A stretch of 60,553 nt of DNA, filler included, from Asterionella formosa (Eukaryota), in NCBI GenBank assembly GCA_002256025.1. It is 14 parts of 14 records of this genome, joined end to end, with 100 filler letters (N's around TTAATTAATTAA, not from the genome) between each part and the next. Parts side by side here need not be neighbours in the genome. Positions count along the whole stretch, not along the records: positions 17,402 to 21,647 come from NKIB01013637.1; 13 more parts are not named here. One strand, 5' to 3'. The position numbers were made by a program, and so were the translations under genes. The notes below the pieces were generated by a model, which was given only the letters and a program-made list of their open reading frames with translations, did no database searches and was not told the DNA's origin. Below are positions 4,171 to 60,376 of the stretch, piece by piece. The first letter of the stretch is position 1. Every line of letters starts with the position of its first letter.

Positions 4171-4252
4171 CCAGCAAGTTGCAATCATGTCGCTTAAATA
4201 ATCAAATTAATATTGGATAAAGATAGCTAACGTTTTAGCTTCAGCACAATTA
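4171..4252 (+). mobile_element. ~95-bp MITE family B, truncated by contig end
   Basis: TA|CCAGCAAGTTGC...gcttaaataa...gatagctaa...cttcagcacaatt; homologous to 32817-32900 and 35893-35988. Confidence 0.7.
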
Positions 4253-4352
4253 NNNNNNNNNNNNNNNNNNNNNNNNNNNNNNNNNNNNNNNNNNNNTTAA
4301 TTAATTAANNNNNNNNNNNNNNNNNNNNNNNNNNNNNNNNNNNNNNNNNNNN
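4253..4352. other. Artificial contig spacer, first of 13. The others start at 8604, 12954, 17302, 21648, 25979, 30309, 34612, 38939, 43263, 47585, 51907 and 56228.
   Basis: Identical N44-TTAATTAATTAA-N44 blocks with stops in all six frames, separating pieces of about 4.2 kb. Confidence 0.99.
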
Positions 4353-7334: not shown

Positions 7335-7632
7335 TGACCTATGATGGTACAGTATGTACCATACCAGCCGAACTAAATTAGATGGTATAAGCCCTTTACA
7401 ACGTTAACCAGCCTTATACTAGGCTCTTCTACATAGATTATTCATGTTCTTACTCTCACCATAGAGGGTTACATAATACTCAGTGTATGGTGTATATGTC
7501 AACCCTAGTACTAGCGTGTAGTTCCTATTACATATTGCATTATGTACCCAAGACAATATGACTGCTCCCGTATATTATAACTATTGGTACATAATGTACC
7601 TATAGAATAGATGTAGTAATGCTAGGCTAAAT
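7335..7632 (+). mobile_element. Solo LTR related to the Gypsy LTR at 59984-60376
   Basis: Collinear blocks tgacctatg, ggtacagtatgtacca, attagatggtata, aggctcttcta, gtcaacccta, acatattgcatt, tagaatagatg, aatgctaggctaa. Confidence 0.8.
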
Positions 7633-9133: not shown

Positions 9134-9370
9134 TAGCAGAGGATTATTACAATGTACCTCTGGTGGAGTCATTCTATTGTTAGCAGAAGCAGTATGGTGG
9201 AGATACATGTGATCAATATGTATGTAGGTATGTCCTGGAACTTGAACCTATGGATCTAACTGCTACCAGGTACCAGGAGTATATCCAACAGGGTATGAAA
9301 TAAATTCATATAGCAGTGCAAACAATAGTATAATATTATTTGGTAAGTAGTTTCTCTGTGTCCGGCGGCA
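9134..9370 (+). mobile_element. Solo LTR (TAGCAGAGG...GGCGGCA)
   Basis: Highly similar to 10357-10592. Flanked by TATC/TATT, an imperfect 4-bp target duplication. Confidence 0.75.
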
Positions 9371-10347: not shown

Positions 10348-10592
10348 GAAGGGGAGTAGCAGAGGATTATTACAATGTACCTCTGGAGGAGTCATTCTAT
10401 TGTTAACAGATGCAGTATGGTGGAGATACGACATGTGACCAATATGTATGTAGTAGGTATGTGCTGGAACTTGAACCTATGGATTTAACTGCTACCAGCA
10501 GTATATCCAGCAGGGTGTGAAATAAATTCATAGAGCAGTGCACACAATAGTATAATATTATTTGGTAAATAGTTTTTCTGTGTCCGGCGGCA
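10348..10592 (+). mobile_element. Polypurine tract plus 3' LTR (same family as 9134-9370)
   Basis: gaaggggag immediately precedes TAGCAGAGG at 10357; the LTR ends GGCGGCA at 10592. Confidence 0.7.
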
Positions 10593-11700
10593 TATGGTAT
10601 CATCGTGATTGTTTTATATTTTGCTTGCTAGTATGCATGGTTTGTTGCAAAATAAGTATACCATTGGCATATACTTGAATATTAGAATAAGGACCTCGTC
10701 CACAGTAATCCAAGGTAGTAGGATTATCCAATAGGATTAAAATCTCGTCACCAAATTTGTAATCACAAGAACGATGATGGAAATTATCACGACGTAGGCA
10801 TTTGTCAATTATCACTTGTCGACATTGATATCCCAATATTAATTGCATATCTGTAAGCAAAGGAATATTTAATATCATATCATGTTGGAAAATCCAGCCA
10901 TATTCCTGGTGAAATACGCAATGTACTATAAATAGTAGCTCGAGCTGCATAGTATGATGCAGCTGCAAAACATGTATCCAAGATATTCTGAGCTTGAAAT
11001 TCCTTGATTGGAGGATGAGCCTTTAACATAACTCGTAGACTGTTACTGATAGATTGATGTAAACGTTCACAGATAGCATTTGTTTGCGGATTCTTGACGG
11101 TAAAAGTCCCATTTTTTATTCCATTCAACACTAACATGTGTATGAACGGAATACTAGGAAATTCACCTCCATTGTCATGTATACAACGTTCAGGATGGAG
11201 ATATCTGTCTAACCAATCATTTTCAAATTTCATCGCAATATATTCTGATGTCTTATTATTGATATGATGTGAAATTTCTGGTAAATTGGTGACATCGTAA
11301 ATACAATGCATTCCTTGGTGGAAGTTCACCAAAAACCTGCACCAGGTAATTTTGTACGTTTTGACATGTTTCACATATGCTTGCAATATGTTCCACTCTT
11401 GCTTTTAATGGAGGGTAATATAAAATGTGTAGAAATTGTAGCATTTAATCTTGTCATACCCACATGATCTAACATCTGATGATACCAATTAATAATAGGA
11501 TCCAATAGTGATGTAGGAATAGCAATACGCCAAGTATCGTCGAAATCATACATTTATGTATATAGACATATTGACCAAAATTCATATGGCCTACCGGTAG
11601 TACTGTATAATTGCTGGTAATTACTTCCATCATGGAAATACCACAATAGTGCAGCGGAAAACTGAATATGCTCATGTGTTTAGGATCATTTGATCATATT
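10593..11700 (-). mobile_element. Degenerate Ty3/Gypsy integrase (zinc-binding domain, rve core, C-terminus), frameshifted
   Basis: WRIAIPTSLLDPIINWYHQMLDHVG, ICETCQ, FENDWLDRYLHPERCIHDNGGEF, KNPQTNAICERLHQ, DYKFGDEIL...GPY...VYANG, spread over several frames. Confidence 0.9.
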
Positions 11701-14818: not shown

Positions 14819-15784
14819 CATTCCCGTAGATGTTTAATGCCTGATCAGTGCTCAAACTCGATTCGACGAAATGGTAATCACGCGTACTTTACAATATGTA
14901 CGCAAACTTCGGAGACGAACTCGCGACTAGAGTTTTGAAATAAATTTGAAAAAGATCTGTGCACGATTCACATAAGGAATTTTCCACGAAGTGAGGAAGT
15001 ACGGAGTTTCCCGTCCATACCTCCAAGTAAGCGAACCTCGCAGAAGGACGCGAGACCTGAATTTCGCATGGTCGATTTCATGCTTGGAAAATAAACCGCG
15101 AGGTCTGGTCACTATAGCTACCGGTATGCAAAAGGAATTTTCAACATAACGGTTGCGAGGAAGTACGGAGTTTCCCGTACCTACCATGTACGAGGTACCG
15201 GTACTCCAGTTGTCGGAGCACCGGTGTCTGGTAGGAGTACCAGGTACCAGCACGAGCAAGTTTCTGTAGATGTGCTGTAGCTGACTACTGGTATCTGCTT
15301 TTTCCAAAATGACCGGAACGTGCAGATTTGATACTCCATCAATTCCTCCTGTACTCGCTTGAGCTAAATACAACGTCGTGCCTTTGCGCACACAAGAACC
15401 AAATATAATGCAAATGATCATGCAACATTGCTCATGTCGTAAAATTATAGGTGGTATATATTGATATACCGGTATGTCAGGTGGTTTGGACGATTCTTCA
15501 TTCACATCGATCGGCTCAAAACATTTTCAGGGGGTTCTTTTTGGGAGAATCGCAACGCTTTGACCATTATTCGAAAAGAACATCTACCGGTTACCAAACT
15601 TGGAACCTCAGCAAGAAGCGAATCATTCGACAGTACCTACATAAAAATCATCCAAAGTATCAGCATCAGCTTCAGCTGTCAGCATCCCAAAGTCCTCTAC
15701 AACGGAAAGGGACGGAGAACATAATCGAAGCGCGAGCCATCGAAAGAGATTTCATCCACCGAATCAGCAACACAACGAAGCAAA

Positions 15785-19283: not shown

Positions 19284-19767
19284 TGTTGAGGTCGCAAAGT
19301 CCGAGTCGTTCCTTGCAATAGCAAGAAGGGAATTGATGAGAGGAAATTATGTATATGTTGTTAAATATACTGCGGCAGGCGCAAATTCATATTATGCCCA
19401 TTTCAATGACTTGTTAAGCTTGTTGCATTGGACAAGATTCAATCAAACACCCCTTGCCGTTAGGAGCATCACCTCAAAGCCCCATTTTTTGCTTAGCGGT
19501 ACCGTACTGGATGGATAACAATGTATGGTTACTTCAAATCCCCATTGTTCACGTCAGTCCTCACTTATTTGGAATGTGTCAGTCATGTGTGGTATCGGTA
19601 CATCGAGAAGCTTGCTTAGTATCAACTAAAATGAGTATTGAAGACTCTAAGTAACCCTTTGTGCTATGGATTTTTGGAAGTGTCCATCACGTTCCCAGTC
19701 CCGGGAGCCGTACCAGTTCTTTGTTTTCCCACGTATTTAGCTTGCAAGAATAAATCATGTGCGGGTA

Positions 19768-19844
19768 CCTGAAAGGTCCAGTAAAACACGGTGTTTACTT
19801 AAGTTAAGGTTCAGCTAAATAGCTCGCCTACTGGACCTTGCTGG
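19768..19844. mobile_element. 77-bp MITE with 16-bp TIRs and TA target duplication
   Basis: TA|CCTGAAAGGTCCAGTA...TACTGGACCTTGCTGG|TA (14 of 16 TIR bases match). A related partial copy lies at about 1293-1340. Confidence 0.75.
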
Positions 19845-20114
19845 TACCGGTTAATAGGACCGGTACCAGGTAGTCAGTCTAGTGATGAAGTGTGACATAG
19901 ATCTAACGGACGAACGGGCACGAAAATCCCGGAACGGTCAAATGACATCAATGTGGTAGGAATAGCTGGCACCAGGTACCCCTGGTAGGTACCAGGTATC
20001 GTCAACCATGTACTACATGGTACGGTACCAGGTACGGTTCCCTGGTACCAAAATGCGCCAAAAATGAAACGAAGTCAGATTCATCTAATTCTAGACTACT
20101 TTGAACATATATTG

Positions 20115-23682: not shown

Positions 23683-24119
23683 AGCTCTTCGCAGAGGATT
23701 AAAATAAAGATGTTGAAAAGAAATGAACAGCATGGAATTGGAAGTGCTGAATGGCCACACATTTATTGATTTAAACAGAGTCGTCGCTTCCACCAAGGTT
23801 GAATTATCTACCACCGCCACTCTCGACTCAGGTCGCACGGCATCTAGGTCCAAATTGGGAAGGCCTCTCCATTTACGTTAAAATGTTCCCCGTACCAATT
23901 CGTTTAGTTTGCTGCTCTTGGTTTGTCAGATGAATCAACAACCTAGATCTTTGCCAACTTTTGATAGTGCATGCCGTGTTCTTCAGATGCTGTACTTTCA
24001 GCACCCCAACTTTCAAATGTAGTTGATACGGTTGCATTTTCCCCCTAAATAAACCAGGAAGCATCGAGTACTGCCTGTTATAACTCAATGAGTTTTTAAA
24101 GTACTGTACCTGGCACCAG

Positions 24120-24470
24120 GCATCATTGTCATGCTGTAGATATATTCGTTTTTGGTCATCAGGCCACTTCTCATTGATCACAGGTAAAACATTGTTCATG
24201 ATCATGTCAGCATGTGTCTGCATGGGTAACTGGAAGGGATTTTGTTTCCATTGTCCCTGCTGGTCGATAAATGAAAGTCCTTTGGGCTACCAATTGGTGA
24301 ACAAATGGCCAAATACCAATTTTACCGTCAAACACACACACTTTGTTGTCGTCGAAACATGGACAAGTTACAGCAGAAAGGAACATTACCTTTTCGATAT
24401 GATCTTTAGTATGTCTTTTTCGCTGTGTGGGAGCCTCCTCTCCATGAGCCAGATATATCTTCAATTTTCC
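24120..24470 (-). mobile_element. Degenerate plant-type (DD39D) mariner transposase fragment
   Basis: HIEKVMFLSAVTCPCFD...FDGKIGIWPFV...RPAGTMETK, a frameshift, then VLPVINEKWP...IYLQHDN. Confidence 0.88.
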
Positions 24471-26239
24471 TTCGTAGCAACTTCAGCCTTTCCCACCAGT
24501 TCATCTACAACACTGAAGTTGCCTTGCTTGTGTAGAATATAGTATTCCAAAGGTAATTGGTAAGCTCATTGCAGAGCCAAGGATATCAGCATCACCTGGT
24601 CCCATTCCGGCTTTGTGACAACCCAAAATAAACTACTTGTCTACAGCTGTTAAACATAAAATAAATTTTTTATGCTGCCAAGCAAGGCGAGGAGCGAGCT
24701 ACATTCTATACCAATAGAAAATGCAAAATGAGCGACGCATTACATGCCATATAGTATGCATGTGGTAGGAAATACTGGTACTGGTAAATAGAAATATACT
24801 GGTTTCTAATTGGCACATATATAACAAAATCATACCGACAATAGAAATGCATATACACGTTGTCCCCACTGTTCTAGTCGCGTAAAGGACAAGCAGTGTA
24901 AACATTTATGTCTGCAACTGTCTATATTTACTTCAAAGTGACCTGCTCAAGATTCCATAGAAATATTGACCACGACAAATAGTACGTACAGCCATGATGG
25001 TCAGTACAAAATTGTATACTGAGGTATTTTCTTGCATTTTGAGATGTTGCACCCTCTCCGAGATTTCTATTGCTCGATTTTTCTCATCTTTTTTACAAAA
25101 TAAAGAACTATTTATCTAATAGAAGTTATCAAGCTAGTCATCGCTCACGGACTCAACTTTGTCTCGTTTTTGCTCGTATCCTCAAAACTGATGAGGAAAC
25201 GACGACGAAAAAAAATTCTAGCGGCAATTTCTTTTTTGTCAATACTTGTGGAAACTTTTTATTTTTGAACGATTACTTCATCTATGTTAGTATGATACAT
25301 GTTCGAAATGGCAGTAGTTCATATTGCTCGATATTATTTTTAGTAAAAAAATGTCATTTAAAATTTAGTTGGGAAATTTTCTATCCTTGATAGAAACAAT
25401 TATTGATTTTCTAGATATTTCGTCAAAAAATTAAACACGAATTCCCTGGACTCATTCATTGTGCATTTTCGGACTCTTTTGTGCAACGAAGGTAATGGAC
25501 CTTGTTTGCAATATTCTTTCTTTACAAATGCACAGACACAACTTTCGCAACTTACATCTTCCTGCAGCAATTTCTACACTGAATGATAGTCGATTCTATG
25601 ATTCCTGTTCAGGTGAGAGTCTGGTTCAACCATTGATGTGATTGTTGTGGGGGGAGGGAATGGGATTTTAGAGGACCACCAATTCTGATTTTCATCGCTG
25701 ATTATATTTCGTCCTCCAACTCCATTTTGGATCAAGATAGTCACCATGACTGGAATGTGGCATGATCTTCTCTTTTGTTGATGTTGTTGTTTTTTCGGTT
25801 GATTCGTTAGAACGTGTAAAATAAAATCATATTAGCTATTTAATTATCAATCCAAAGCTCATGCCACCTGATTTCTAAAAGAAATTGAATCAATATACAT
25901 ACATGATGATATGAAGTAGAAAACTAATGAAATGAATGATATTAGTGAAAAATCTATCCACAAATAGATTTAGAGCGTNNNNNNNNNNNNNNNNNNNNNN
26001 NNNNNNNNNNNNNNNNNNNNNNTTAATTAATTAANNNNNNNNNNNNNNNNNNNNNNNNNNNNNNNNNNNNNNNNNNNNTACACCGGTGATCAGACCAAAA
26101 AAACCGTTGGTGATACACAAAAAAAAACCAAACCGCCATTTTTGTATCATATTTCGGCGATGATACACCAATGACAACAAATAACAGAATGATAAGAACG
26201 GCCCTAAACGTGATTGAGGGTACACGTTATATCACGTAT

Positions 26240-27759: not shown

Positions 27760-30182
27760 TAGACGGCGATGCATTCCTTCCTTGGAAAAACCTCAAGGCT
27801 CGCTATGTTCCTAATGCTACAAGTGACCTAATCTAACTGTCAGGACAGTTCAACAAGTGCATCTGTGAGGGGAAGACGCAAGACCCTGACGAATGGTTCA
27901 TCCAACTCGAATTGTTGAGGAATTGAATGGCGACAATTGATTCTGCCTACGAAAAGAAGGATCTCAAGATGATTGCCCACATACTAGACAAACTACCTAA
28001 GGAGTACTCAGAAGTGGTAACAATGGTTGAGGCTATGCCCTCTTCAACACTAGAATACCTTAAGGCCAAGATATGCGCATTCTTCAAACGCAAGTTTAAG
28101 AACGAAAAGTCGGATGGCGAACTTGCTCTTGCTGCCTTTGGAACTAAGTTCAAAGGACTCTGTCGCTCTTGTGGGAAGCAAGGACACAAGGCAGCCGATT
28201 GTCGAGTCAAGAACTTCTTGACTTGACGATAAAGAACAGGCCTCCTCCGAAAGGCTTCAAGTGTTTCAATTGCAACAAGCATGCCGTACATATCGCAAAA
28301 GATTGCCCCGAACCCAAATGAGAATGTACTACAACGAAAGAGACCGGCATGTTTGCTGGCATGTGAAAGATTGACTACGAAGAAATCGAAGTGAACAAAA
28401 AGAAGCAAGATACGAATGACAAGTACAACAAGAACGACGATAAAGAATGGACCTTCTTCGGTATTTGCCAGGAATTTATTGATGATTGTGATGAAAAAAT
28501 TAATAACAAATGGTTTTGTGCTTCTGCTGTTGCTCCTCGCTGTATCGCCCTACAGGAGAATTGGCTCGCTGGTGATACTGGAGCTACTGCCCATATCACA
28601 ATGAGTGATGTCGGTATGACAAATGTACGCACAGTTAGTGTCACAGTCGTCGTCGGCGATGGCTCGGAAATTAAATGCACAAAACGCGGTGACATCAAGC
28701 TCACCAACGGAGAAAAGACCATGATATTGAAGGATGTCCTGTATAAGCCTAAGTTTCACAAGAACATCGTCAGTTTGGGCATCCTAATCCATTGTGACGG
28801 TTTTGACTTTCAGTCACGGGGTCTACAATTACAGTTAAGAAAGGTCATGGAGGACATATTTCATTTAACAGAGAGACCAATGGAGTTCTCTATTATTTTA
28901 AAGGAAGTCGCGCAAGTTATGCCGATGTCGTATCCATGGTTATTGCCCCATTGTCCCAGGGGGCCGATAGTACCAAAAACTTGTCTACAAACACCCATAC
29001 AGTTATGAGTGGGGAGGACAAAATGAAGTCACACGGACATCAACGAGGCACTTCATATCTACGGGCATATCGGGGAAGCCACACTAAGAACTGAAGATAG
29101 AACTTACTGTTACCATCCGGACCTGTGACGGATGCTCTAAGGCAAAGGCGAAAGCGAAGGCAGTTTCAAAAGTGTCGACTGTACAGGCTGTACTACCCGG
29201 TGAACGGATTTTCGTGGACACTACAGGGCCGTACAAAAAGTGCATTGTTGGAAGCAATTACTGGATACTTGTGGTTGATCAGTTCTCTGGAAAGTCATGG
29301 AGCTTCTGTTTTAGGAAGAAGAATTTAATATCCGAAATTGTGGACGAGCTACTTATCAAGCTATTTGCAGCAAATTATGTCATCAAGTATCTATGATGTG
29401 ATAATGCTGGTGAAAATCTCGAAAATTTGTCATCTGTATGCACCAAGCATGGTATTTAGATTGAATACACAGCACCAAATACACCTCAGCAGAACGGTGT
29501 TGTTGAGCGCAAGTTTGTCACCATATGTGATAGAAGCTGTGCTGGTGCTATGATCAATGCAAAGCTAAATGATGAATTTTAAGGACTTCTTTAGGCAGAA
29601 CGTGCCAACACAATGACTCGAGTGACAAATGTGGTTTCGAATTCAAGAAATATCAAGTGTACTGATTGGCTATGGTATGGGAAACAACATACAATATATG
29701 AACACTTGATCCAATTTGGACGAATTGGATATGTCACCATAAGAATCCCTGTGAATAGGCTTGATGATGAAGCAATTAAATGTATCATGATTGGATACTC
29801 TGAAAATCACTCAGGTGATACCTACCAACTCCTTAACCCTATAACAAAGAAGGTGATTCAGAGCCTTGATGTAAAATGGATAGAGTGGCATGGAGAAACA
29901 AAACCTACCGATGATTTGACCATGTTCAAGACTGGGATTGATGAAATTGAGTTTGAGGAACTTGACCGACCTGTTGCACCAACTCTGACTGTCATCCCAG
30001 ATGATGAGACTGGAACAATTTCGACTCTTAATGACTTGCTGGTCGCTGAAGCAGGGAGGAATGAAGCTTCAAATACTTCACAGCCTGCTATTACAAGAGC
30101 TGAACGAGAGCTCAAGAGACTTGGTCATGAAACTGCTCCAATGATGTCTACACTACATTCTGGAAGATCATATACAATTTTA

Positions 30183-30258
<76 letters not shown>

Positions 30259-35892: not shown

Positions 35893-35988
35893 CCAGCACG
35901 TTGCGGTCATTTTACTTAAATAAACAATTCGATATGGGATAAAAATAGCTAACTTTTTAGTTCCAGCGAAATTACCCCAACTTGCAGG
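35893..35988 (+). mobile_element. MITE family B, complete 96-bp copy
   Basis: TA|CCAGCACGTTGCGGTCATT...AATTACCCCAACTTGCAGG|CA; imperfect 19-bp TIRs. Confidence 0.72.
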
Positions 35989-38900
35989 CACCATGACACC
36001 ATGGTACCTGGTACTGGTACCCGTTAGCACTGCCCATGCACGAACAGTATCATTCAATGCAGCATATTACAGCACATCTCAGCCAAAAGTAAATGCCTTG
36101 CTTTTGTCAAAATTTTACTTCGTGGAAAAGATGAAAAATAAAATAGCCGTCGTGGTCATTCTTAATTGTAATTTAACCAAATGTCTGCCTTGCTTTTCTA
36201 TATTGCCAAACATTCTGAGACCCACCACACAACGAAGGACGAGATCAAATTTTTAACAATGGTACCTGGTACAAGGTACCCGGTACCAGATACCAATAGA
36301 CCGGTTAGCGGTAAATGATAAAATATATGGAATCCAACAAGTTGAGGATCGATATATTCAGTGATTAGAAACCAAGGCGTGCAATATGTTTACGGGTATA
36401 TGAATCACTGTCCAATCATGACGTAGATTCATGTGTCTGTCTGTTTGTCTGTGAACGCCTGTCGTGTGTTCTCGCCATACTCTCTTTCTTTACCATACTC
36501 CAATCACTCTTTTGACATAACCCCTTCAAACCTCCTATTGAGCTTGTCAGGTTAGTTAATTGACTCACATTACTCTCCTCCTTCATCCTCGTCATTGTTC
36601 GCTACTGTTCCCTTTTTCACTACGGGTTGTGAGCCCAAGCTGTTTTGTTGAAAGAAACGAAATTGTTGATTGTTAATTCGATCTCACCATCAGCACTGAT
36701 CACAAAATCTCATTTGCATTCAATTGTTTTCACCTCGTTCATTTGTCTGCTACATCTGTCTAGCTATATACTACACTACACAGCAGCAGTAGACAATTGT
36801 ATTGATTTGTCTTTTTCAAACAAGTGTTATTTGGCATTCAGTGGTCGCCTTCTTTCTTTACTAGTTTGCAATACATTGTCATCAGTGTATTCTTTTTTGT
36901 CGTGAATCATTTTCATACCATCACACTATTTTGGGTACGAAGATACTCCACAAAAGGATCATCTGCGCACGAGTGTTTTATAAGTACCAGGTACCACAAT
37001 ACAACTTCTACCGGTAGTTTGTTCTCATTGAATCAGATCTCTTCCACTATCGATTTATTTCACTGTGGCTGGGTGCAAAGTTTGAGAAGATTGGGTAGGG
37101 TCATGTAGACATAGTAGTACAAACAATAACCATAACCCTTCTACTGAAATAATTATCACGCAAAAGTACTTGTTGTTTTGTCTTGACAATGGCCTTAACC
37201 GACTGTCGCTTTTCTTTGTTCCTTGCTATGATCTCGCAGATTCATCACCGGTTTGAGCATTGTAAAATTTTGAACTAATAGAATGAGTTGGCTGATGGAT
37301 CCACAAGGGCATTTAATTCCTTTGAGTATTTGCCTTTTTTGCATTTGTGTGATCATAGGCACTAGCAAATGACTTGCTATTACTAAGCAAAATGCACAGG
37401 ACATTTGGTCTATGGTGGAGCAATGGACCATGAGAAGTATGAAATACCGAAATACATTGTGTTTGAGATACAGTCACCCAGCTTCTTATGCTTTCCTCCA
37501 AAGATGTTCATGAACAGAAGTATAGCAGTATATATATGTCTTCAGAACACGCAAGTGCAGAATATATATAAATATCTTCTGAACCATATATTCAATTTAA
37601 CTAGGAAAAGGATGTTAATGTACCAACGCCTTATGCCATCAATACTTCCGAGCAGATTTCAGAGAGAGGGGAGCTAAGTGTTAGTCGAATTAATCAAAAG
37701 AATGGGATAAAACAGTGGGTCAATGCAGTTTTTTACTGGTACCTGGTACAATAGTTATGTCGGGTACCAGGGGTTCCCTGGTAACCACTACATAGTTGTT
37801 CTGTATGATGATGCTAGAATGCAAATATTTCAAATAATTATTGTAATCAATATTTTCGTGTATTTGGCCGGAAAAGGAGAATCAATTTGAGTTTGGAGAG
37901 AAAAGAGCAACGTAAGCAAGACTTGCTTACTTTTGCTTTGGGCCACCCCTCTATTGCCCCAGTCACTGTCATTTTCTTTTTTTCAGACATTTGCCTCGCT
38001 TTGATGTTTCCATTTTCAGACGAAATAATTATTTCATCACTAACCTATGCAATTCTCGCCATATGCATAACAAATTAATAAATATACATACTTATATATC
38101 TACACATCAGACATGTCATTGTCAGACGATATCAAAAAGAAGTCACAAGAGAAGAACAATACTTCCTGATACTCTGTATGCGTAGCTAACACCCAGTGCT
38201 TTTATACTTTTAATTTCATCTTTAATCGACTTCATCTCTTCTTTTACTTTCTTTTGCTCCACTTAGCCCCTTCATCTTTCGCCCACCTCTGAAAATTAAT
38301 AATTATTTTCTCATGGTTTGCTATCATGGTTTGCTATCATGGTAATGGGAAATTTCTTATTTTCGATTCATGAGTGATTGCATATAATTACATTTACATA
38401 CCAGGTGGACAGAGAGCATACCGGTGTATCGGTTCTGTATATATAATAAATATACCTGTGTGTGAATGTAGTGCCTGTGCCCGCATCTGACGGAATCTAT
38501 CTTTGCTCTCCGGTAACCCCCCTTTTTTTTCGGATTGGGGGAATGAGTTTGACCCTAAAATAGTTCCTGCCAAATCAAATTCTATCATAATAGTGTTCAA
38601 AACGATCATGCCACGAATGAAAGATAACCGTTTTCCGAGCTTGTCAGATTTTAGTATTGGATCTACAGGCGTATAAATCCGAGATGTCGAAATCGTCATT
38701 TCGGCAATTTTACCGCAAGTTGCTGGTACGCTGGTACCTGGTACAGCCAACCTGTAAATATGTACCGGTATGCATGTTCTACGTGGTACTCCGTGGTACC
38801 CACCTGGTACATGGTTGCCTGACTCCTTCCTTCTCTTCCTGGCCTCATGTAAGAGGTAGCAGCCAAGCATGAGGAAAAGCCGAATTTCCTCCTCGTCGCT

Positions 38901-44031: not shown

Positions 44032-44642
44032 TGATCTTGTTATTCCAATTCTGTAATAAAGAATTCATCAAATGCCGGTAATAGCAGGACTTCATGCAAC
44101 AACTGGGGTCATCCCCCTCGACGAGTCATATTGTAATGGTTGGTCCCATATTTGGTCTACATACTACCGAATACAGGATGATCGTTTGCTCAAAATGTCA
44201 TTAACTCTTACCAGAATGTGACAGTATGCCTGATGACATTTTCATGTTCTCTTGCTGGCTCATCTCCATGAATAAGCATTCTATGTTGCCGACCAGCTAC
44301 ATCTTCTGCCTAGCAGCAACTTATTTTACGATGCGATAGCTAGGGTGGGGAATGCATATTCATGGAGATGAGCCACATGCAAGAGAACATGAAAATGTCA
44401 TATGAGGCATACTGTGCATTCTGGTAAGAGTTAATGACATTTTGAGCAGACGATCATTCTGTATTCGGTAGTATGTAGACAATGATCATGCAATATACTG
44501 GTTGTACACGCAGTCCAAAAATATGGGACCGATTATTACAATATGACTCGTCGAGGGGGATGACCCCAGTTGTTGCACGAAGGCCTGCTATTACCGGCAT
44601 TTGATGAATTCTTGAATACAGAATTGGAATAATACACGATCA
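44032..44642. repeat. Long inverted repeat (foldback): arms 44032-44281 and 44350-44642, 68-nt loop
   Basis: Arms are reverse complements along their length (e.g. caactggggtcatcccctcgacgagtcatattgtaat); ~34-nt extra segment in the right arm at 44481-44514. Confidence 0.95.
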
Positions 44643-59019: not shown

Positions 59020-60376
59020 AATCATCCTTTCTGTCGACGGAACAAACACAGTTCCCGATTCATACAGCACTTATTGCATATGAACAAACCAAGGACACAG
59101 TCCTAACAAATAAAATGCAGGCGGACAAATCCTCCTGCTTCACCAAACGTGTGATTGAAGGGAATGCAGTCATTATGCACAGGGGAAAAATGTATGTGCC
59201 CCATTCTCTTACACAACACACCTTGGCATGGTATGATGAATACCTATGTACAACACTCTCTGAGTGCCTTAACTATGATTGATCCGGCCACTGGCTGGTT
59301 CGAAATCAAAGCAAGAACGGACAAAAGTGCAGCTTCCATAATGGACCGTTTTGATAACGAATGGATGGCGCGCTATCCACGACCACAAAGCATTATATTC
59401 GATAATGGTGGGGAATTTAAGAACTTATTTAAAGCTATGTGCGATAACTACGGGCTTAAATCTACACATACCATGAGTTATAACCCGCAGGCCAATTCTG
59501 TCCTCGAACATGTTCACCAGGTATTAGGCAAAATGTTGTGCACGCAACGCATTGCTGATACTATCTCGGTTGAACAACCCTGGGTTAATTTCCTTGCCGC
59601 GGCTGCCTGGGCTATTCGCAGCACGTACAATACGACTCTTGACGCCACTCCCGATTTAACTGGTTTTTGGGCGTGACATGCTCCTCAATATTGCCTTTAA
59701 GGCGAATTGGGAGGCCATCCGCCACAACAAACAGGTCAGCATAAATGCTTCGAACGCCAAGGAAAACAAATCTTGTATTCCCCATACGTATAAGATCGGT
59801 GACCAAATCACGGTCATCCGTCCAGGACTCCTCCCGAAATTGATGAGCCCCACTGATGGGCCACATACTGTCACACAGGTATATACAAATGGCACTGTCC
59901 AAATACTCCGTGGCATCGTGTCTCAGCGTCTTAACATTCGCCGTGTCCACCCGTATTTTGCCTCGGCAATTCATGGGGGCAAGTGACCTATGGTACAGTA
60001 TGTACCAAGCTAGAAATACTATATTAGATGGTATACCGGTAAGTCCTCTATAATGTTAACCTTATAGGCTCTTCTATACAGACCATATACTTGTTTACTC
60101 TCAATGAAGAGATTTACACAATACACACTGTGTATGTATACCAGGTCAACCCTAATGAAAGGTGTACCCTTTCATATCACGCACATGACTACCATGGTAC
60201 CCATATGTGGTACACATACATGTACACGGGATTGATCATGATTAGCACGTGATGCTGTATACTAGCCCATAGTACATATTGCATTTTGTACCCGCAGCTA
60301 TTTATGCTACGAGATAACTATTGGTAAATAGCTATGTACCTCTAGAATAGATGCACGTAAGAATGCTAGGCTAACA
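59020..60376 (+). mobile_element. Ty3/Gypsy 3' end: degenerate integrase, polypurine tract, 3' LTR 59984-60376
   Basis: LTMIDPATGWFEI, WMARYPRPQSIIFDNGGEF, YNPQANSVLEHVHQ, GRDML, GPHTVTQVYTNGTV, RLNIRRVHPY; gggggcaag|TGACC...GCTAACA. Confidence 0.92.

Follow-up and report, generated by a model that had tools for sequence, protein, structure and literature searches.

The genome of the freshwater diatom Asterionella formosa is crowded with two short palindromes, TACCGGTA and TACCWGGTA, which are probably best explained by three layers of mobile-element activity: CCGG scars left by pogo transposons, CCWGG scars left by a second agent, and MITEs that duplicate CWG and use the scars as landing sites. 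Assays have made excision footprints familiar; to our knowledge, they seldom dominate the words of a genome. The first-pass annotation had ascribed both motifs to a single TA-targeting transposon family with CCWG ends. The enrichment, the insertion at TA and the derived state of the motifs held, but the CCWG MITEs did not hold as their source, and the two scar classes differ in flank bias and chaining, so that a single family does not explain both.

The window analyzed here is a stretch of 60,553 nucleotides composed of 14 contigs of ~4.2 kb each, joined by 13 artificial spacers; an excess of TTAATTAA and a 4.3-kb periodic repeat within it are artefacts of the N44-TTAATTAATTAA-N44 joins (4253-4352 and 12 others). 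Genome-wide counts refer to an assembly of 68.4 Mb in 15,436 contigs, in which near-duplicate contigs somewhat inflate absolute numbers. About 0.89 Mb (~1.3% of the genome), enriched for mobile elements, was inspected in detail. Public sequencing runs that contain the window come from algal and freshwater samples, and one transposase fragment has named diatom relatives, in keeping with a freshwater diatom host.

Abundance and derived state of the motifs

In the window, TACCGGTA occurs 23 times against 0.64 expected under an order-2 Markov model, while TACCAGGTA and TACCTGGTA occur nine times each (0.33 and 0.30 expected); the first is the most frequent word of the form TA-N4-TA and the other two are the most frequent of the form TA-N5-TA. 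Over the 68.4 Mb we counted 28,528 copies of TACCGGTA and 26,886 of TACCWGGTA, against 1,718 and 902 for the respective reversed-pattern controls, so the earlier description of the motifs as pervasive is confirmed. The combined density is ~1 per 1.2 kb and, with 6 and 7 added bases each, the two motifs amount to ~0.36 Mb or ~0.5% of the assembly (background not subtracted). Just one of the 41 motifs of the window falls within its 13 chosen long ORFs, where 6.9 were expected. Metagenome contigs of other samples (L272-L274) carry TACCGGTA and TACCWGGTA chains too, so the motif signature is common to these and to the diatom studied here, as members of one species or of closely related ones.

To compare homologous copies we paired homologous stretches of 223 non-redundant sequences, 787 kb in all, and collected 1,937 distinct, cleanly flanked indels; this set was drawn from TE-rich loci, and some entries are one site repeated across different paralogues. 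The change from TA to TACCGGTA makes up 28 of the 104 distinct 6-bp indels (24 non-tandem and 4 tandem copies), and the gain of CCWGG at TA makes up 7 of the 60 distinct 7-bp indels (5 non-tandem, 2 tandem). A CCG unit was gained in 5 of 65 distinct 5-bp indels and CCAG in three indels of the same set. Other stereotyped gains at TA are a single C or G (62/406 three-base indels) and GC (17/210 four-base indels). The units in the window that were compared or listed individually are the following (no strand assigned):

60034..60041, TACCGGTA, where a related repeat near 7389 has a plain TA
9264..9272, TACCAGGTA gain relative to a repeat near 10494, ambiguous because a tandem copy is possible
19500..19506, TACCGTA (CCG unit), missing in the paralogue in contig C5830
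20883..20891, TACCAGGTA, missing in the C5830 paralogue and not a tandem copy
19864..19872, TACCAGGTA unit, from the motif listing
19990..19998, TACCAGGTA unit, part of a chain with indel differences to the C5830 paralogue
20026..20034, TACCAGGTA unit, from the motif listing

Two of these had previously been put forward as extra bases after a TA. The CCGGTA at 60036-60041 is indeed extra with respect to the repeat near 7389; the seven-base gain of CCAGGTA at 9266-9272 is also real, but it may be a tandem copy.

Fourteen of the 36 site keys have at least two, and up to 15, empty homologues. Filled copies are outnumbered at every one of these 14 (12 CCGG and 2 CCWGG), which indicates, in line with the earlier proposal, that the motif-bearing state is derived. 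Motifs are also found within MITEs and dead elements, and one copy of the MITE that we call family B holds an internal scar-type gain. At homologous sites CCGG is paired with CCAG or CTGG, and these pairs represent CpG decay of scars. We found no homologous site that pairs CCGG or CCAG with CCWGG, among just 13 CCWGG comparisons.

Pogo elements and the probable CCGG scar

The inserted CCGG bases match the terminal CCG...CGG bases of two resident families, P1 and P2, whose ends read TA-CCGTA...TACGG-TA. P1 is 2.46 kb long, with nine copies that are 99.4-100% identical over the assembled 1.95 kb, and complete P2 elements measure 2.2-2.7 kb; some pogo copies are young. Both families have short TIRs and a TA duplication, and one P1 and two P2 complete elements have empty paralogues with a single TA, one of the P2 sites (the L212 locus) being empty also in public contigs, which are repeat-dominated. 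Elements that duplicate TA and end in CC...GG, as the first-pass annotation supposed, thus exist in this genome, with CCGTA ends. The P1 protein matches Pfam DDE_1 (E 1e-21; 100 genome matches for this domain), with a DD35D catalytic spacing by hand count on P1 and weak, under cut-off matches to BrkDBD (E 0.0067) and HTH_Tnp_1 (E 0.0004). A second, convergent ORF of ~145-150 aa without a Pfam match is present in P1 and P2 (L199:3348-3782, L212:1380-1838). Judged by sequence features, both families fit a Passer-like pogo (DDE_1, DD35D).

Excision of such an element would usually leave TACCGGTA. Cuts a few bases inside each end would produce CC or CCG overhangs, and end-joining, with CC meeting GG or with two CCG overhangs paired at CG, would give TA-CC-GG-TA or, less often, TA-CCG-TA; the CCGG scars would then lose their CpG and become TACCAGTA or TACTGGTA. 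The base before TA is G at 7 of 28 P1 and P2 ends and at 283 of 866 CCGG units, so that the flank bias is weak at both and the two match. Among eight complete P1/P2 elements, and in four public sequencing runs at one locus, there was no site at which one copy has a complete pogo element while a second has TACCGGTA; as such a pair of alleles was not seen, we infer the excision step, the element structure, the TA duplication, the gains and their polarity being direct observations. The ~28,000 scars set against ~100 transposase matches count against a pogo origin, which demands many hops per copy. With this taken into account, TACCGGTA is very likely the usual excision scar of the Passer-like pogo elements.

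Other transposases were considered as the source and rejected. Pfam DDE_3 had no genome match, a plant-mariner-like family (52 matches) has TA-CTCCC ends and not CC, and the Tigger-like pogo elements end in TA-CAGTG. Two transposase fragments lie in the window:

24113..24482, minus strand, transposase fragment with DD39D-type motifs, which we take to be plant-mariner-like; a full copy with TA-CTCCC ends is found in the related contig C12319
46605..47084, minus strand, PIF/Harbinger-type transposase fragment (Pfam DDE_Tnp_4), with no link to the CWG elements described below

The window also includes a 590-bp element at 44040-44632 with 114-bp inverted arms (94%) and inner inverted repeats, as well as fragments of Copia-like/Gypsy-like retroelements at 27761-30197 (many copies, ~90% identity), 10600-11404 and 59155-59676.

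CCWGG units and the CWG-bordered MITEs

The CCWGG units differ from CCGG in their surroundings. G precedes the TA in 677 of 845 cases (80%), and still in 315 of the 436 isolated units against a background of 25%. They are also chained: 99 of 537 CCWGG units (18%) are followed by another, compared with 15 of 560 CCGG units followed by CCGG (2.7%) and 1.7% for any TA. The W bases of adjacent units are the same in 39 cases and different in 35, which points to separate events and argues against slippage. CCWGG, likewise gained at TA, would then be the work of another agent, with a preference for G-TA-C or GG-TA-CC, and each unit would supply fresh GTAC sites, so that chains could grow by repeated independent events in the manner of a ratchet. 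The maker would most likely be an element that targets TA and ends in CCA or CCT, the W arising from a mismatched or A:T-paired central base. We consider it rather likely that TACCWGGTA is the scar of this second, GTAC-preferring agent, even though the ~0.89 Mb examined contains no TA-CCA or TA-CCT family other than family B.

Decay of TACCSGGTA by CpG loss was ruled out as the origin of CCWGG, since its mirror product TACCCAGTA does not exceed background, with 10 copies against 7 expected. Within CCWGG units there is a strand-biased one-base gain (TACCAGGGTA 61 versus TACCCAGGTA 4), possibly a footprint of the CWG elements. Plant-type mariners insert into these CCWGG chains as well; their ends follow CCWGG in 13 of 27 cases, about the share that a GGTACC preference predicts (667 of 1,712 GGTACC sites), and TACTCCGAGTA, found 10 times against 0.2 expected, may be the scar of these mariners.

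Family B is the sole abundant element bordered by TA-CCW. It has an 88-bp core and longer relatives of 0.36-1.4 kb with common ends; its one-end pattern has 655 exact matches in the genome (control 0). The element at 19768-19844 belongs to a second family, A, related to B through hybrid ends. The copies and ends present in the window are:

19772..19840, plus strand, core of MITE family A, 69 bp, ends AAAGG/GAAGG ... CCTTG/CCTTC, 15 genome matches
19769..19771, plus strand, left CTG, proposed 3-bp target duplication, direct repeat with 19841-19843
19841..19843, plus strand, right CTG; deleting the core and one CTG restores TACCTGGTA
35894..35987, plus strand, complete MITE B, with the 88-bp core at 35897-35984 flanked by CAG and CAG
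4172..4252, plus strand, MITE B, left CAG and core, truncated by the contig end
32818..32897, plus strand, MITE B, left CTG and core, right end lost
15254..15325, plus strand, degenerate B-type element flanked by GAG and CAG
38472..38725, minus strand, one end of the 1.4-kb non-autonomous B-type family that we call family i

The letters reported earlier for the elements at 19768-19844, 4171, 32817 and 35893 are present, but the parsing of their ends as TA-CCWG...CWGG-TA is not supported, since W belongs to a direct repeat and CWG is present just once at the empty sites. If the ends were true inverted repeats, W would be inverted between the two sides, and of 77 complete copies 65 have the same W, 5 the inverted one and 7 another combination, so W is a direct repeat. 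Two empty sites have a single CTG (L117 versus L120, and L268 versus L112, in which second pair the MITE-less paralogue carries a variant motif). At L055:1410-1430 and L035:1625-1640 a lone CAG separates two neighboring B cores, as is expected of a shared target duplication. The 19768-19844 element would accordingly read as CTG, a 69-bp core and CTG. Sister families tied to B through hybrid ends have CWG on both sides and no TA (L208, L127, and most of 18 ends of a 450-bp family). It is thus highly probable that the CCWG MITEs and their relatives of 0.4-1.8 kb are non-autonomous PHIS/NuwaI-like elements that duplicate CWG, although a 1-bp duplication of W with G...C ends fits equally; scars with a double target site duplication (TACCWGCWGGTA once, TACCWWGGTA four times) are too rare to separate the 3-bp from the 1-bp version. 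Family B would land in the middle of TACCWGGTA, so that the scars would serve as its targets.

The transposase that moves these MITEs was sought among candidates flanked by CWG-type ends, and none was found. None of 35 inspected loci among the 150 genome matches to DDE_Tnp_4 is enclosed by such ends; this holds for four DDE_Tnp_4 loci other than the young Harbinger-type family below and for the locus beside a family i end, and a master element is absent from twenty contigs picked for lone B ends. A very young Harbinger-type family (L226-L245; 39 equal-score matches at contig ends, 99.6-100% identical) was rejected as the CWG mover on account of its different ends and TNA-type flanks, which are often followed by G in the orientation as printed. 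The same applies to an IS630/Tc1-like family of 1,000 aa (123 genome matches, no Pfam family), represented by a fragment (L269:220-1258) and marked by a very long insert ahead of the third catalytic residue, since the adjoining B-type end in L269 belongs to a short MITE; metagenome relatives of this family have TA-CAG ends at 4 of 16 loci and on one side at one more.

With B the only TA-CCA or TA-CCT family in the ~0.89 Mb examined, a CCWG-ended MITE is a minority candidate for the source of CCWGG. In this alternative, B-type elements target TA and have CCA...AGG ends, their 3-base overhangs pair A:T to give TACCWGGTA, and later inversion of the core randomizes W. It offers a neat account of W, and B shares the flank bias of CCWGG (G before TA at 78 of 106) and has TA at 70-73% of its ends. 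At locus L037, moreover, three CCWGG units and a B MITE occupy a place where most paralogues have one GTAC, one paralogue having only a CCGG unit and none having CCWGG. The B copies not chosen by likeness to the window copy are skewed, with A in 17 cases and T in 9, which speaks against the CWG reading. Yet the conservation of B falls off outside CWG (C 87%, next C 76%, A and T 73%), unlike the TA kept at 88-96% of P1 and DD39D ends (78% in P2 and 62-69% in the Tigger-like elements, both small and noisy samples), and the sister families with CWG but no TA, together with the two empty sites with one CTG, go against it. It also requires frequent core inversion. The CCWG MITEs are seen in both orientations. 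On a poorly resolved tree of 24 copies of the 1.4-kb family (27 were found, and 3 without A or T were omitted), W changes 10 times, against a mean of 8.3 in shuffled data, with 487 of 500 shuffles as low; W is unclustered on the tree and is therefore not inherited with the element. We regard this origin as unlikely.

Less probable still is that the units were written by host repair or slippage, as templated or untemplated insertions at TA or GGTACC breaks, without transposon ends. The chains do resemble tandem repeats, 4 of the 28 CCGG and 2 of the 7 CCWGG indels are tandem, and a CCWGG donor was not found in the ~0.89 Mb examined. Most gains, however, are non-tandem and of fixed sequence in unrelated flanks, the W's of adjacent units are independent, and the CCGG unit equals the ends of a resident young pogo. 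A third proposal, that CCWGG derives from CCGG scars by CpG decay and one further base that a CWG element left behind, or by direct insertion of W, is very improbable: a biased one-base gain of the kind described above does exist and decayed CCAG sites serve as targets, but the 13 CCWGG comparisons include no site paired with CCGG or CCAG, and direct TA/CCWGG indels (7) exceed TA/CCAG indels (3). Finally, palindromes of ancient origin with a function in protein binding or methylation, which selection maintains and deletion between two TA's removes, would match the depletion in ORFs and yield the same two alleles by deletion between direct TA repeats, but hardly seem credible with the filled state in the minority in 14 of 14 informative keys, motifs inside MITEs and dead elements, and CpG decay.

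Comparison with known systems and implications

Enzymes of the Tc1/mariner type cleave a few bases into the element, so that its outermost bases stay behind between two TA's (PMC6943129). The Sleeping Beauty footprints described in that source are alike in consisting of TA, terminal bases of the element and TA, with A or T as alternatives at the center. The diatom differs in having ~55,000 intact natural copies, CCGG units that keep the bases of both ends, and two scar classes with different target bias, all read as a genome signature and not from an assay. Passer elements, as presented in PMC9976928, resemble P1 and P2 in DD35D, short TIRs, TA duplication, a length of 2.2-2.7 kb and a transposase of ~420 aa, and their footprints measure 0-4 bp. 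Passer has a Brk/HTH-type N terminus, to which the P1 matches are weak and under cut-off; P1 and P2 also depart from it in having an extra convergent ORF in place of a single ORF, and in their diatom host.

NuwaI, of the PHIS superfamily, is defined by its CWG duplication, shown by paralogous empty sites, and in that survey it was found only in 16 animal genomes, with TIRs that usually begin with GGG (PMC4482050). The CWG elements share with it the CWG target duplication and short TIRs, but their ends are CAAG, GAAG or GGAG (one family has GGGAG on a single side), all copies seen are non-autonomous, whereas an autonomous NuwaI element would have DDE and Myb/SANT ORFs, and TACCWGGTA is the target of the most abundant family. 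We therefore suggest a likeness to NuwaI by analogy, and do not claim membership. In rice, MITE excisions were also read by genome comparison from natural events, and 8 of 94 left a clean site, deletions or filler being the usual outcome (PMC4423477); here the products are highly stereotyped. A literature search, with subscription journals and Repbase outside its scope, did not turn up any diatom study that describes these motifs. What is added here is the CWG duplication, the split of the scars into two classes and the chaining numbers.

The scars constitute a countable archive of past excisions, datable through CpG decay, and contribute a large share of the small indels outside coding sequence. 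For annotation, abundant MITEs would otherwise be placed in the wrong superfamily and blamed for the scars that host them. Should the CWG elements prove NuwaI-like, the range of NuwaI extends to a diatom, where it depends on the scars of another element. A more ambitious reading, on which we lean slightly to doubt, is a two-tier ratchet in which TA scars of one transposon class breed their own targets and are now the main landing site of the unrelated, CWG-duplicating NuwaI-like group and of plant-type mariners. If this ratchet is true, scars would build the insertion niches of other transposons genome-wide, over ~0.5% of the genome's length.
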